IMG/VR virus record: IMGVR_UViG_2695420565_000012
Reading direction: 5' to 3' (one strand)
From: a virus
Lineage: Duplodnaviria; Heunggongvirae; Uroviricota; Caudoviricetes
Length of the DNA stretch: 5,523 bases
Within the stretch, counting starts at the first letter, position 1, and each line of letters begins with the position of its first letter. The position numbers and the translations under genes are program-made. The notes below the pieces were generated by a model. That model was not told the origin of the DNA, did not search any database, and was given only the letters and a program-made list of their open reading frames with translations. Below are positions 2,526 through 5,467 of this stretch, in pieces.

Positions 2526-3341
2526 TCAATGAACGGTATCGAGCAGCTTTAACAGCTCAGGGAATCGGGATTCGAAGAAATGCGGCTGCGTCTCGCGCGG
2601 ATTTGCGGGACTGGTGATGTTCTTGCCGAACATGCAACCTTTCGCTGTCAGCGACCAGAATTTTTTGATGTTGTTAATCGCGGTACGGCTGTATCGTTCG
2701 CGTTGTTCAACGATCCCCAGCTTCGCCATCTGGTGATATGCCTGATTAGCCGTCAGGCGGATACCATACTGCTTCAGCAGTGCACTCAGCGACAGCGTAG
2801 GGCGGCTTGAACCATCTGGCGCATCAGCAGGTGCATCAATGGCATAGATCGGCATAAGTTCAGGAAGACCAGCTACCTTTGATAATTTCTGGTATGCACC
2901 AAGTTTCGAGGAGTTTGACAGATTTAGAGTCTTTGCTGCTGATTCAAGCAGAATGACCCCGGATTTAATTTTGTCGGATGTGGTTTCTTCTGGTGATGAA
3001 TTATGAAGCGCATCAAAAGTACGTATCACTTTTAAGCTGAATGCCGGGCTGATCCACATTGCATATGCATAGACCAGCTCTTTACAGACATACGTCCCAC
3101 CATTGCGCCCCTGAATGGTGATGACAGGAATACTACGGGAATCTCCCGTAGTTTCTTCTTCCAATAATTCCACAAGAGCCTTCGTTTCAGGACGACGCAT
3201 AAACTCGTGAACTTCCAGCGAACGGGAGGAGCGATTCTCACCAGCGGCAAGAAGAGCAGCTTTCTGAAGGTCGTTAAGACAGTAGTTAGATTCGAAGTAC
3301 TGGCGCACAGAAACGCCATCAATTACAAGCAACTGATTCAT
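2526..3341 (-). CDS. Antirepressor-like protein with N-terminal KilA-N domain and ANT-like C-terminal region
   Basis: ORF-track entry 2526..3353 (GTG start). I prefer ATG 3341..3339 (MNQLLVIDGV...) with SD GGAGAA 5 nt upstream. N-terminal VRQYFESNYCLNDLQKAA...GRNGGTYVCKELVYAYAMWISPAFSLKVI fits the KilA-N pattern (G-T-W/Y-V...W-I/L-S-P-x-F). The C-terminal part resembles phage antirepressor C-terminal domains. Confidence 0.8.
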   Translation of the reverse strand: MNQLLVIDGVSVRQYFESNYCLNDLQKAALLAAGENRSSRSLEVHEFMRRPETKALVELLEEETTGDSRSIPVITIQGRNGGTYVCKELVYAYAMWISPAFSLKVIRTFDALHNSSPEETTSDKIKSGVILLESAAKTLNLSNSSKLGAYQKLSKVAGLPELMPIYAIDAPADAPDGSSRPTLSLSALLKQYGIRLTANQAYHQMAKLGIVEQRERYSRTAINNIKKFWSLTAKGCMFGKNITSPANPRETQPHFFESRFPELLKLLDTVH

Positions 3342-3438
3342 TGGTTTCTCCACAAATTTTTATCCACGAGCGGGACTGCACTCCCTTTTCGTTGATGCAG
3401 GATGAACTTACTGCGATTTTTAATAGTTATCAAGGATA

Positions 3439-3458
3439 CACTGTTCATAAATACAGTA
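3439..3458. promoter_or_regulatory. LexA (SOS) box candidate in the rusA-ant intergenic region
   Basis: Plus strand cactgttcataaatacagta has a perfect CTGT-N8-ACAG core with an AT-rich spacer and matches 16 of 20 positions of the consensus TACTGTATATATATACAGTA (counted by hand). It lies about 98 nt upstream of the antirepressor ATG at 3341. Confidence 0.5.
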
Positions 3459-3469
3459 TCTTTAACGAG

Positions 3470-3498
3470 GTAATACCCAAATTTAGGGTGTTGCTCAA
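3470..3498 (-). promoter_or_regulatory. Candidate sigma70 promoter for the antirepressor operon (-35 TTGAGC, 17-nt spacer, -10 TATTAC)
   Basis: Minus strand reads TTGAGC (3498..3493), a 17-nt spacer, then TATTAC (3475..3470). That would put the LexA box at about +5 to +24. An alternative pair, TTGATA-17 nt-TAAGTT, lies just downstream of the box. Prediction by eye only. Confidence 0.25.
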
Positions 3499-3503
3499 TT
3501 CCG

Positions 3504-3899
3504 TTACCGAGTTGCTAATTTGCAACTCGCTTTTTCGTACTTACTGATAGTGATCTCGACCTTCCCCTCCGGGATAACCGGTCCCCACTCCACCAGCATT
3601 CTTTTCACCTGTCTGTCGTCTTCCCACACACCCGCGTGGGTCAGGGCGTCAAACAGCGCCTTGTTATAGTTGTCCAGATCGCGGATCCGGTTATCCGGAG
3701 GAAACAACACGATCTCCACTGAAGCAGGTGCCGACGTTGGTTTCGGCAGACGACGTAACTGCTCAACTATTGCTGCACACGCCGCGCTCTGGAATTTTCG
3801 CCCCGCCGCGCTTATCAGGCTCTTACCAGCAAACGCCCCTTTGTTGGGGTGTCGCCAGTACGTGTTCACGCTGGGCGGAAAAGGCAGTATTAGCTTCAT
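3504..3899 (-). CDS. rusA: Crossover junction endodeoxyribonuclease RusA (Holliday junction resolvase)
   Basis: 131-aa ORF. LPFPPSVNTYWRH and RDLDNYNKALFDALTHAGVWEDDRQV match the RusA N-terminal and catalytic Asp-rich motifs (compare E. coli RusA LPWPPSNNRYYRH...[27 protein letters not shown]). ATG 3899..3897 overlaps the upstream stop as ATGA. Confidence 0.9.
   Translation of the reverse strand: MKLILPFPPSVNTYWRHPNKGAFAGKSLISAAGRKFQSAACAAIVEQLRRLPKPTSAPASVEIVLFPPDNRIRDLDNYNKALFDALTHAGVWEDDRQVKRMLVEWGPVIPEGKVEITISKYEKASCKLATR
3508..3535 (+). terminator. Plus-strand terminator-like hairpin inside the 3' end of rusA
   Basis: cgagttgc (3508-3515), loop taattt, gcaactcg (3522-3529) form an 8-bp stem, followed by cTTTTTcg on the plus strand. 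The minus-strand reading has no U-run. No convincing plus-strand gene lies upstream of it. Confidence 0.3.
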
Positions 3900-4222
3900 A
3901 CTTTCAGGCCCCTCTCATGTAACCAGTGGGCTGCACGCAGCCTGGCGTTTGCCTCACCGGCAAGCAGGGCGCGGATAATCCCGACCGCCTCGCTGTCGTC
4001 GTCCTTCACCGCGGTATGAAGAGTGATACCCCGGGCCACGCCACGCTTTATCGTGATGACACCTTTTTTCTCCAGTGCGCGAAGATGCTCCACCGCTGCA
4101 TTCACCGAACGGTATCCCAGCATGGTTGCCACCTCCTGATTGGTTGGCGGGAAGCCACGTTCTTTCTGATAAGAAATCAGCATATCCAGCACCTGCTGCT
4201 GGCATTGAGTTAATGTCGTCAT
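3896..4222 (-). CDS. LexA-family DNA-binding protein consisting of the LexA N-terminal winged-helix domain only (no S24 peptidase/autocleavage domain)
   Basis: 108 aa. LTQCQQQVLDMLISYQKERGFPPTNQEVATMLGYRSVNAAVEHLRALEKKGVITIKRGVARGITL aligns along its length with the E. coli LexA N-terminus ([65 protein letters not shown]). It is too short to contain the Ala-Gly cleavage site and Ser/Lys dyad domain. SD GGGAG upstream; ATG 4222..4220 overlaps the Dam stop (ATGA). Confidence 0.85.
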   Translation of the reverse strand: MTTLTQCQQQVLDMLISYQKERGFPPTNQEVATMLGYRSVNAAVEHLRALEKKGVITIKRGVARGITLHTAVKDDDSEAVGIIRALLAGEANARLRAAHWLHERGLKV

Positions 4223-4872
4223 GCCGCCATCTCCCTGACCAGTTTTTCCGCCTGCTGGCGAACCTGCGCCAGAAACGCCTCACCACATGCCTCAAGTTCA
4301 TCGCGCCCGATGTAGCTGATTGCCGCTCCCTTCCAGGTCTTGTCGAAAACAGCAATAGCACCAGCGAAGAAAGCACCTGTTGGCACCTGCTTTTCGTCTT
4401 TCGGGATAAACCAGGCTGGCAGTTCAAAACCAATACGCCCGCGAATAAAAGCAATATGATCTGCATCTTCCGGCCACCACACTTCGCTGGTGGCCGCTTT
4501 GATCAGGAAAACATAGCGCCCGCCCTTATCACGCATGGCACTGGCATGTTTCATGATGTAACGCATGCCGGTGATGTATTGCCCCTCATGCTGACTGGCG
4601 CGGCTGTATGGGGGATTACCAAAGGCAGCACCTTTAAGCTCCGCAAGACGTTCTGACCAGTCATGCGCCAGCGCGTTGTCTTCCGCCGTGTAATACGCGG
4701 CACATTTGGCGTTATCACCGTCAGTGAACAGATCCAGAACAAACGGACCAAACAAGGTGTTAATTCCCCAGAAAATGTTGTCCGGCGTGCGCCACTGATC
4801 GCCCACTTCCTTCAGTTCATGGGCTGGTTTGTTCCGCAGTTCTACCAGCGCCTGGCAATATTTATTACTCAT
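4219..4872 (-). CDS. Phage Dam-type DNA N6-adenine methyltransferase
   Basis: Contains FGNPPYSR, the (D/N)PPY catalytic motif of N6-adenine methyltransferases; overall resembles the phage N-6-adenine-methyltransferase family. Start taken at ATG 4872..4870 (MSNKYCQALVELRN...) rather than the GTG at 4917 from the ORF track, because the ATG overlaps the stop of the upstream micro-ORF (TAATG) and follows a GGGGG run. Stop TGA at 4221..4219. Confidence 0.85.
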   Translation of the reverse strand: MSNKYCQALVELRNKPAHELKEVGDQWRTPDNIFWGINTLFGPFVLDLFTDGDNAKCAAYYTAEDNALAHDWSERLAELKGAAFGNPPYSRASQHEGQYITGMRYIMKHASAMRDKGGRYVFLIKAATSEVWWPEDADHIAFIRGRIGFELPAWFIPKDEKQVPTGAFFAGAIAVFDKTWKGAAISYIGRDELEACGEAFLAQVRQQAEKLVREMAA

Positions 4873-4964
4873 TAAGCCCCCACGTAAAAAGCATCCGCAA
4901 TGTCTCCGGAAGTACACCCCGGATGGGCTTCAATGAATTTCTGAACTTCATTCAAAAGACTCAT
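4872..4964 (-). CDS. Possible 30-aa micro-ORF translationally coupled between the upstream ORF and Dam
   Basis: ATG 4964..4962 lies 2 nt after the upstream TGA stop (TGATCATGA). It reads MSLLNEVQKFIEAHPGCTSGDIADAFYVGA, and its TAA stop overlaps the Dam ATG (TAATG). Not in the ORF track (too short). No recognisable family. Confidence 0.3.
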   Translation of the reverse strand: MSLLNEVQKFIEAHPGCTSGDIADAFYVGA

Positions 4965-4966
4965 GA

Positions 4967-5467
4967 TCACCCCCTGAATCCTTCCGGGATCTGGCTGTAG
5001 TCCACGTTGTCGTAACTGGCTTTGAAGTACGGGTCCTCGCGTCTGGCTGCAGATACCGCAGGAACTTCCCAGGATTCTTCGAAATGACGATCCGGACCAA
5101 AGAACGTCGACGCCTGCTTCACGAACTGGGTACCGGTATTTCCAGAGACACGCACCCAGGCGGCATAGCGTTTCACACCGTCGAGCATGGTTTCGGGTGT
5201 CACACCTTCCCTGATTCGGGCTTTCCAGGCTTTAAAAGCGGCGGATTTTGAATTACCACCAGCACGTTTGGGATATTCCTGCCAGGCCTGTTCAAATTCC
5301 GGTGAATATTCCTGTCTGGCAGAACGCGCTGGTGCAGACGCGTCAGCGGATGCGCCAATAGTGTTTTTAGTCTCCGTTGTAATCTCTGTAGTAATCTCTG
5401 TAGTAATCTCTGTATTTGAGGTGTACTGACAATAGCGGACACTACCATTTGTTCTTTTTTTAAGCAG
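4967..5467 (-). CDS. Phage replication-associated protein (conserved phage C-terminal domain, Phg_2220_C-like motif) with N-terminal (TEIT)n repeats; start codon undetermined, possibly frameshifted
   Basis: The frame is open from the stop TAG (5470..5468) to TGA (4969..4967). It reads ...NTEITTEITTEITTETKNTIGASADASAPARSARQEYSPEFEQAWQEYPKRAGGNSKSAAFKAWKARIREGVTPETMLDGVKRYAAWVRVSGNTGTQFVKQASTFFGPDRHFEESWEV... The F-x-x-(F/A)-W-x-x-Y-P-K-R...A-x-K-A-W...F-x-x-x-x-W pattern matches the conserved C-terminal domain of phage replication proteins as I recall it. No ATG/GTG/TTG occurs in this frame upstream of the GTG at 5203, which is the ORF-track start. Confidence 0.5.
   Translation of the reverse strand: MLKKRTNGSVRYCQYTSNTEITTEITTEITTETKNTIGASADASAPARSARQEYSPEFEQAWQEYPKRAGGNSKSAAFKAWKARIREGVTPETMLDGVKRYAAWVRVSGNTGTQFVKQASTFFGPDRHFEESWEVPAVSAARREDPYFKASYDNVDYSQIPEGFRG
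5379..5414. repeat. Perfect 12-bp tandem repeat x3 (gtaatctctgta), preceded by a degenerate copy from about 5371
   Basis: Read directly: 5379-5390, 5391-5402 and 5403-5414 are identical, and 5371-5378 (tctccgtt) is a partial related unit. In the minus-strand frame continuous with the downstream conserved domain it encodes TEIT-TEIT-TEIT. Confidence 0.9.

Follow-up and report, generated by a model that had tools for sequence, protein, structure and literature searches.

Does a LexA-type palindrome lying inside a packed prophage gene cluster place the genes behind it under the control of the host SOS repressor, and is the first of these genes an antirepressor? The question arose from a first-pass annotation, which had proposed that a near-consensus SOS box brings a KilA-N antirepressor under host LexA control. 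The window, that is the whole stretch of DNA analysed here, comprises 5,523 nucleotides of the IMG/VR virus record IMGVR_UViG_2695420565_000012 (Caudoviricetes). Its genes are all carried by the minus strand, are tightly packed and belong to a lambdoid E. coli/Shigella prophage, of which they represent the nin-like region (Table 1). The gap that contains the palindrome and the kilA-N gene are 99-100% identical in Shigella phage SfIV, coliphage PhiR49_1, the O104:H4 outbreak strain C227-11 and the ExPEC strain S88, and both were found in 186 of 5426 complete E. coli genomes (about 3%). The best full-length matches of the window are S88-type prophages (97.7%). A literature search retrieved no ChIP, EMSA, footprint, expression or transcript data for this locus, and yielded no account of the box, the coliphage mini-LexA or the pairing of kilA-N with DUF968; LexA, SOS and KilA all go unmentioned in the paper on the SfIV genome.

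Table 1. Genes, signals and side features of the window, with related features in other phages. Positions are those of the window unless a locus handle (L) is given.
Feature	Position	Strand	Remarks
Three tandem 12-nt repeats GTAATCTCTGTA	5378-5413		right-end region with the replication-type gene; read from sequence
Replication-type gene	right end of window	minus	first in transcription order
30-codon ORF MSLLNEVQKFIEAHPGCTSGDIADAFYVGA	4872-4966	minus	read by eye; fills the apparent gap before the Dam gene
Dam-family methyltransferase gene	4219-4872	minus	second in transcription order
Phage mini-LexA gene, 108 aa	3896-4222	minus	third gene; LexA DNA-binding domain without cleavage domain
rusA, Holliday-junction resolvase gene	3504-3899	minus	last gene ahead of the gap
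Stable 8-bp palindrome in last rusA codons	3508-3529		terminator-like on plus (antisense) strand only; -13.5 kcal/mol, z -5.4
rusA/kilA-N gap, 162 nt	3342-3503		contains the SOS box
Candidate LexA operator (SOS box)	3439-3458	plus CACTGTTCATAAATACAGTA; minus (gene strand) TACTGTATTTATGAACAGTG	CTGT-N8-ACAG core; HI 4.5/5.5
Weaker alternative promoter TTGGGT-16-TACTGT	3453-3480	minus	-10 within box; score 5.7, not above background
Candidate -35 TTGATA of PkilA	3433-3428	minus	5 bp downstream of box; sigma-70 PWM
Candidate -10 TAAGTT of PkilA	3410-3405	minus	spacer 17; sigma-70 PWM
Leader hairpin GGGA-GTGCAG-TCCC	3372-3385	minus	21 nt upstream of Shine-Dalgarno GGAG (3348-3351)
kilA-N, 271 aa	2526-3341	minus	N-terminal KilA-N/APSES DNA-binding domain, long helices, C-terminal alpha/beta domain
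DUF968/HNH nuclease gene	1529-2524	minus	start 1 nt past kilA-N stop
Antiterminator Q gene	1140-1511	minus	Phage_antitermQ match; 17 nt past DUF968
WYL-like protein gene, 214 aa	447-1091	minus	downstream of Q; marginal WYL match, E 0.0096
STnc130-like match	189-325	plus	covers stem-loop AAACCCGCTCAGTGGCGGGTTT at about 297-318
Left-operon TTGCAG-loop hairpin, L085	20477-20496	plus	
Left-operon TTGCAG-loop hairpin, L092	5186-5201	minus	
Left-operon TTGCAG-loop hairpin, L087 (SfIV)	27241-27260	minus	
LexA box inside cI, L085	19329-19348		linker between HTH and Peptidase_S24
LexA box inside cI, L086	18525-18544		linker between HTH and Peptidase_S24
LexA box inside cI, L092	6408-6427		linker between HTH and Peptidase_S24
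LexA box in methyltransferase gene, L085	9720-9739		codons 3-9
LexA box in methyltransferase gene, L092	15934-15953		codons 3-9

Some features of the window lie outside this question. The 30-codon ORF upstream of the Dam gene falls below the cut-off of the ORF list and its stop overlaps the Dam ATG (TAATG); S88-type prophages carry a PerC-family gene at this place. The tandem repeats near the right end look like origin iterons. The WYL-like protein belongs to PHROG 8498, its S88 copy is named WYL domain-containing in RefSeq, and its gene may be a moron inserted between Q and the late genes. At the other end of the window, the Rfam match to the enterobacterial sRNA STnc130 reached 30.1 bits (E 0.15), which is below the gathering score of 55.

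The candidate operator contains an exact CTGT-N8-ACAG core, the sole one on either strand of the window, where 0.08 would be expected and where 16 of 200 shuffled sequences contained one. By direct count it is identical to the consensus TACTGTATATATATACAGTA at 16/20 positions, in agreement with what had been claimed for it, and the window holds no match to this consensus with three mismatches or fewer. The site was scored with a heterology-index (HI) matrix of our own, built from 30 E. coli LexA operators; its absolute values differ from the published ones, and its ranking is robust. The HI was 4.5 in the plus reading and 5.5 in the minus reading, which is mid-range for the 30 real operators (1.1-10.0; 5.1 for recA), and the second-best site in the window reached 12.1. 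By chance, a site of this score would turn up 2e-4 to 6e-4 times per window, 4e-6 to 2e-5 times in the gap and less than once in 5.2 Mb. The position given by the first-pass annotation, about 98 nt before the start codon in the only sizeable gap of the operon, was likewise confirmed: no other sizeable gap separates the packed genes of the window, and 97 nt lie between the end of the box and the kilA-N ATG (3341). For Salmonella SOS genes, box-to-ATG distances of 8-236 nt have been reported (PMC8072944). All four E. coli/Shigella variants of the sequence keep the core intact, even those that have lost 11 nt closer to the start codon, and the SfIV and AZ187 boxes, which end in ACAGTA, reach 17/20 identity to the consensus. 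Conservation within the species says little, because the E. coli/Shigella copies are 90-100% identical. With its core, its AT-rich centre and a score in the range of proven operators, the site has the attributes of an E. coli-type LexA operator and is, judged from its letters, a high-quality predicted one.

We compared 80 loci encoding KilA-N-domain relatives (44-75% identity) in genomes of other species, and took as test subset 30 non-redundant distant loci with the full two-domain KilA-N and DUF968 architecture. A box with an HI of 13 or less was present between -180 and -40 in 10 of these 30 loci, against 0.30 expected (Poisson P about 1e-12), and six had a box with an HI of 10 or less, against 0.09 expected. 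The remaining distant modules, among them the Proteus/Morganella group, have 19-45 nt between rusA and kilA-N and no box. Boxless and gapless too are the commoner E. coli alleles of 265, 269 and 280 aa, including the allele of phage Stx2a_1447; their clusters hold about 2300, 2300 and 1000 member sequences, respectively, and most homologous modules have neither box nor gap. A mosaic joint was located within kilA-N, near 3116. Other coliphages match only the C-terminal two thirds of the gene (2526-3116), at 81-84%; their N-terminal KilA-N domain is another one, and no gap precedes the gene. In the window allele, a different N-terminal domain and the region upstream of it appear to have been acquired jointly, and the box-bearing leader and the N-terminal KilA-N domain seem to travel as a single cassette.

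The box had also been described as overlapping or adjoining candidate promoters. A stricter consensus scan of the gap for promoters and terminators passed no promoter, and a sigma-70 position weight matrix (PWM) of our own was used after it. With this matrix, TTGATA-17-TAAGTT on the gene strand obtained a score of 10.2, compared with 8.8 for the 95th percentile of random 110-nt stretches; its -10 hexamer matches the consensus at 3 of 6 positions. The box adjoins this best gene-strand PWM candidate, hereafter PkilA, which had no counterpart in the consensus scan. On the plus strand the best promoter score in the gap was 6.7, which is not above background, and a LexA-controlled antisense RNA directed toward the plus-strand hairpin at 3508-3529 was dropped for this reason. 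Transcription from PkilA would start near 3398, which would place the centre of the box at about -50. Most of the LexA operators known in E. coli overlap one of the two promoter hexamers or the start site; a box just upstream of the -35 and centred near -50 would be less typical, and repression from it could be weak.

The arrangement of box and promoter was seen in other lineages. In the window, in Raoultella L074 (TTGAAG-17-TAATCT) and in Citrobacter L083 (ATGCAA-17-TAAAAT), the -10 starts 47-48 nt past the start of the box, and the three leaders have in common the layout of box, 4-5 nt, -35, 17 nt and -10, being otherwise dissimilar by eye. In Erwinia L051/L052 (TTGCCA-17-TATATT, score 13.0) and Serratia L007, the predicted promoters are strong and their -10 falls within the box. 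A LexA-type palindrome at a predicted promoter is thus a recurring design, the exact register of which varies by lineage.

In all cases kilA-N is followed by the translationally coupled DUF968 gene and by Q. In a published description, proteins of the DUF968 family are fusions of an HNH nuclease with an Orf-like domain that binds ssDNA (PMC4118853). A terminator between DUF968 and Q was rejected, as the only hairpin found there is no more stable than shuffled sequences (z +0.7) and has a 4-U tail. Since no convincing terminator intervenes, Q probably belongs to the same transcription unit as kilA-N and DUF968. On the gene strand no U-run follows the palindrome in the last rusA codons, and transcripts from PR are therefore expected to read into kilA-N. 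We infer that the SOS unit would consist of kilA-N, DUF968 and probably Q. Direct control of Q by LexA would be of biological significance, but also dangerous for the lysogen, which might then lyse even when SOS is mild. An extra brake on the unit is therefore likely, and could be a weak promoter, the leader hairpin or Rho.

This hairpin was observed in the window, in L004 (3321-3336, minus strand), L018, L006, L016, L017, L074, L083 and others. Its (G/T)TGCAG loop is invariant, its stems covary freely, and it lies 20-45 nt upstream of the kilA-N Shine-Dalgarno sequence. The kilA-N leaders contained 18 copies in 10.4 kb and other sequence 52 copies in 761 kb, which makes the motif 25-fold enriched in leaders. 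Among 20 examples, which had been picked by a stem filter, 83% of cells pair and the covariation score was 0.95, compared with 0.24 in shuffles (0/500). The hairpin occurs even where gap and SOS box are absent, and two copies are present at some loci. A search of the gap and leader against Rfam, with E values up to 1, returned nothing. The element could serve as an operator at the RNA level, as a stabiliser or as a nut-like site. In three phages, the same hairpin, with a TTGCAG loop, compensatory changes in the stem and GAGGAG and ATG behind it, also stands ahead of the first gene on the left of cI, which is yfdP-like. With one copy in each of the two operons, left and right, the motif has a nut-site-like distribution.

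Because the site is of high quality, adjoins a promoter candidate and recurs in distant relatives, LexA control of the kilA-N unit is likely. We consider it probable that the box is a working host-LexA operator abutting an internal sigma-70 promoter, PkilA, which would serve kilA-N, DUF968 and probably Q. In the lysogen, CI would keep PR off, and a LexA dimer bound to the box, about 5 bp upstream of the -35 TTGATA, would keep PkilA off. Upon DNA damage, RecA-stimulated self-cleavage of LexA would free PkilA. The transcript starting near 3398 would carry a leader with the GTGCAG-loop hairpin and would encode the KilA-N protein, the coupled DUF968 (Orf-like/HNH) nuclease and probably Q. During lytic growth, the same genes would also be read from PR, through rusA. 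The KilA-N and DUF968 products would act in DNA processing or regulation early in the SOS response, and not in antirepression. Occupancy by LexA, the promoter and its start site, repression from near -50, read-through into Q and the roles of the proteins are all predicted steps of this scheme.

The mini-LexA encoded upstream of rusA is a second possible ligand of the box. Its LexA_DNA_bind match covers residues 1-65 (E 2.9e-19) and scores 70.7 bits, against a cut-off of 110.95 for full-length LexA; the DNA-binding domain is present and the S24 cleavage domain absent, as expected of a truncated LexA. The protein aligns without gaps to residues 2-70 of E. coli LexA and keeps S39, N41, A42, E45, R64 and G65, which we take to include base-contacting residues. 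Five of these (S39, N41, A42, R64 and G65) are invariant in 12 phage mini-LexA homologues. In view of these conserved residues, mini-LexA may recognise CTGT half-sites. The box could then be mainly or additionally an operator for this uncleavable protein, which would be made from PR two genes upstream and would re-repress or activate PkilA in lytic growth. Besides the alignment, a position near -50 is more usual for an activator than for LexA acting as a repressor, the P3 promoter of GIL01, where host LexA and the truncated homologue gp6 act jointly, offers a model, and each of the four mini-LexA-bearing phages examined has at least one box with an HI of 4.5 or less. We nevertheless regard this reading as rather unlikely. 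A LexA DNA-binding domain lacking the dimerisation domain binds poorly, though the 40-aa tail of mini-LexA might dimerise. Box and gene are moreover unlinked across loci: a box without a mini-LexA gene within 2.5 kb upstream was found in L006, L007, L052, L068, L020 and L016, and a mini-LexA gene without a box in L004/Stx2a_1447, L018, L061, L088 and L091. As the two occur independently, host LexA is the more economical binder, and the neighbourhood of a phage LexA homologue, to which significance had been attached, turns out to be a weak link. As for the model, GIL01 gp6 recognises a diverged site and not the LexA box (PMC6182141).

The same prophages contain further strong LexA boxes, which ties the lineage to LexA at several points. 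Near-perfect boxes lie inside cI genes (Table 1), TACTGTATGTAAAAACAGTA (HI 2.5) and TACTGTTTTTATATACAGTA (HI 1.1), the first being common to the O104:H4 and S88 prophages and a different box being present in the Stx2a_1447 repressor gene. They could possibly act as an internal promoter or as a roadblock; we know of no description of LexA boxes inside cI genes. The O104:H4 prophage and the Stx2a phage have one more strong box in common, AACTGGATATTTTTACAGTA (HI 4.1). It overlies codons 3-9 of a gene for a DNA methyltransferase that lies between Q and the tRNA/late region.

Host LexA and mini-LexA might also share the operator. Host LexA would silence PkilA (and Q) in the lysogen and, after PR has fired, mini-LexA would take the same site, either re-closing the promoter or boosting it; it might in addition re-occupy host SOS boxes and the strong boxes in cI and at the methylase gene. 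We hold this combined scheme to be unlikely. If true, it would constitute a two-LexA timing switch in lambdoid coliphages, including the mini-LexA-bearing Stx2a phages, and would link SOS directly to the Q-dependent late and toxin genes.

We then come to the product of kilA-N. In the original proposal, the 271-aa protein would be a LexA-controlled antirepressor that inactivates the repressor of its own or of a co-resident prophage, like Tum, AntC or GfoA/GftA. The part of this proposal that concerns LexA is retained, as the site, the promoter candidate and the recurrence of the box make control of the downstream unit likely; the antirepressor label found no support. Pfam detected KilA-N alone, at residues 10-114, and neither ANT/KilAC (PF03374) nor Bro-N, so that the protein differs from antirepressors of the Ant/KilAC type (P22 Ant, P1 Ant). 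Sequence and fold both identify a KilA-N (APSES-type) DNA-binding domain, the fold matching APSES/KilA-N domains only. The C-terminal 150 residues belong to no family beyond PHROG 129/6486, and PHROG 129 is labelled 'transcriptional regulator' only. NCBIfam returned nothing for the protein. A winged-helix-like C-terminal domain was not claimed, since the matches were weak (DnaD-N, ScpB and PadR, all with E > 0.6). The best 120 homologues are all named 'KilA-N domain-containing' or 'DNA-binding' protein, and none antirepressor. PADLOC gave no BstA match, but a 56-residue overlap of KilA-N type with the candidate family PDC-S22; with no meaningful match, membership in a defence system was rejected.

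The repressors of the carrier phages were informative in this respect. Antirepressor systems go with repressors that lack an autocleavage domain, and Peptidase_S24 is present in CI of each of the three carrier phages checked, namely SfIV and the O104:H4 and S88 prophages (E 6e-19 to 1.5e-26). Induction should therefore need no antirepressor, unlike in 186, N15 and Gifsy, whose repressors are unable to cleave themselves (PMC3121763). Most alleles, moreover, lie in the PR operon behind a gap of 19-45 nt, with no box and no promoter of their own; a lysogen would make their product only after repression has been lifted, which would be pointless for an antirepressor. The invariable pairing with the DUF968 HNH nuclease suggests instead that the KilA-N protein has a DNA-directed function. 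On the other side, the LexA operator itself looks real, the C-terminal domain has no assigned function, and antirepressors acting in trans can target other prophages, so that a cleavable cognate CI is no strict bar. In Gifsy prophages, LexA-controlled antirepressor genes are indeed located outside the immunity region, downstream of the replication genes (PMC3121763). On balance, we find an antirepressor role of the protein very doubtful. Finally, it is highly improbable that the box is a chance or vestigial palindrome without regulatory role and that kilA-N is expressed solely by read-through from PR: the standard consensus scan passes no promoter, no gene-strand terminator separates rusA from kilA-N and most alleles manage without a box, but only 2e-4 to 6e-4 such sites are expected per window, unalignable relatives have boxes at the same position (10/30 versus 0.3 expected) and the spacing to promoter-like hexamers is fixed in three lineages.

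If host LexA controls PkilA, about 3% of complete E. coli genomes, as well as SfIV, carry a DNA-damage-responsive prophage unit that needs no cleavage of CI. Among these carriers are O104:H4 outbreak strains and, with S88 as an example, ST95 ExPEC. With Q at the end of the unit and no convincing terminator before it, late genes (lysis genes and, in related phages, toxin genes) could receive direct SOS input, which bears on the effect of SOS-inducing antibiotics on lysogens. The finding also offers a handle on the function of the very common, uncharacterised KilA-N/DUF968 pair and of the phage mini-LexA. LexA-regulated prophage genes are already well established, and this locus thus extends a known theme.

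In phages 186 and N15, host LexA directly represses a prophage promoter, that of p95-tum and that of antC respectively, and thereby brings a prophage gene into the SOS regulon. The same direct repression is predicted for the window. These LexA-repressed antirepressor genes are cited in PMC8044961. Tum and AntC are small antirepressors without KilA-N, from phages with non-cleavable repressors, and have no relation in sequence or fold to the 271-aa protein. The P3 region of GIL01 resembles the window in combining a phage-encoded LexA DNA-binding domain, without cleavage domain, with a LexA-boxed promoter upstream of late functions. In that system, gp6, a truncated homologue of LexA, occupies a diverged palindrome and acts as an activator from -43.5, beside LexA boxes (PMC6182141). 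GIL01, however, is a Bacillus tectivirus whose gp6 site has diverged, and in the coliphage loci co-occurrence of the mini-LexA gene and the box was not seen. BstA, a prophage abortive-infection protein, has two domains, the N-terminal one being a KilA-N-like DNA-binding domain (PMC8585504). The product of the window gene is likewise a two-domain prophage protein with an N-terminal domain of KilA-N type, but falls outside BstA as defined in PADLOC. Whereas bstA is reported to neighbour the repressor locus and to be expressed in lysogens, the window gene is located in the nin region, before Q.

The locus also resembles the LexA-controlled dinI-antirepressor operon of the Salmonella prophages Gifsy-1, -2 and -3. 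In these lambdoid prophages too, the LexA box lies outside the immunity region, downstream of the replication genes, with a palindrome ahead of it (Lemire et al. 2011, PMC3121763). Gifsy repressors are devoid of a cleavage domain and depend on small antirepressors, whereas CI of the three carrier phages checked has Peptidase_S24. The first gene of the Gifsy operon is a dinI homologue; in the window, its place is taken by the gene for the 271-aa KilA-N protein, followed by the DUF968 nuclease gene and Q. LexA dependence is proven in Gifsy and predicted in the window. In Gifsy, an internal unit fires on SOS independently of the prophage repressor, and we propose the same wiring for the kilA-N unit.
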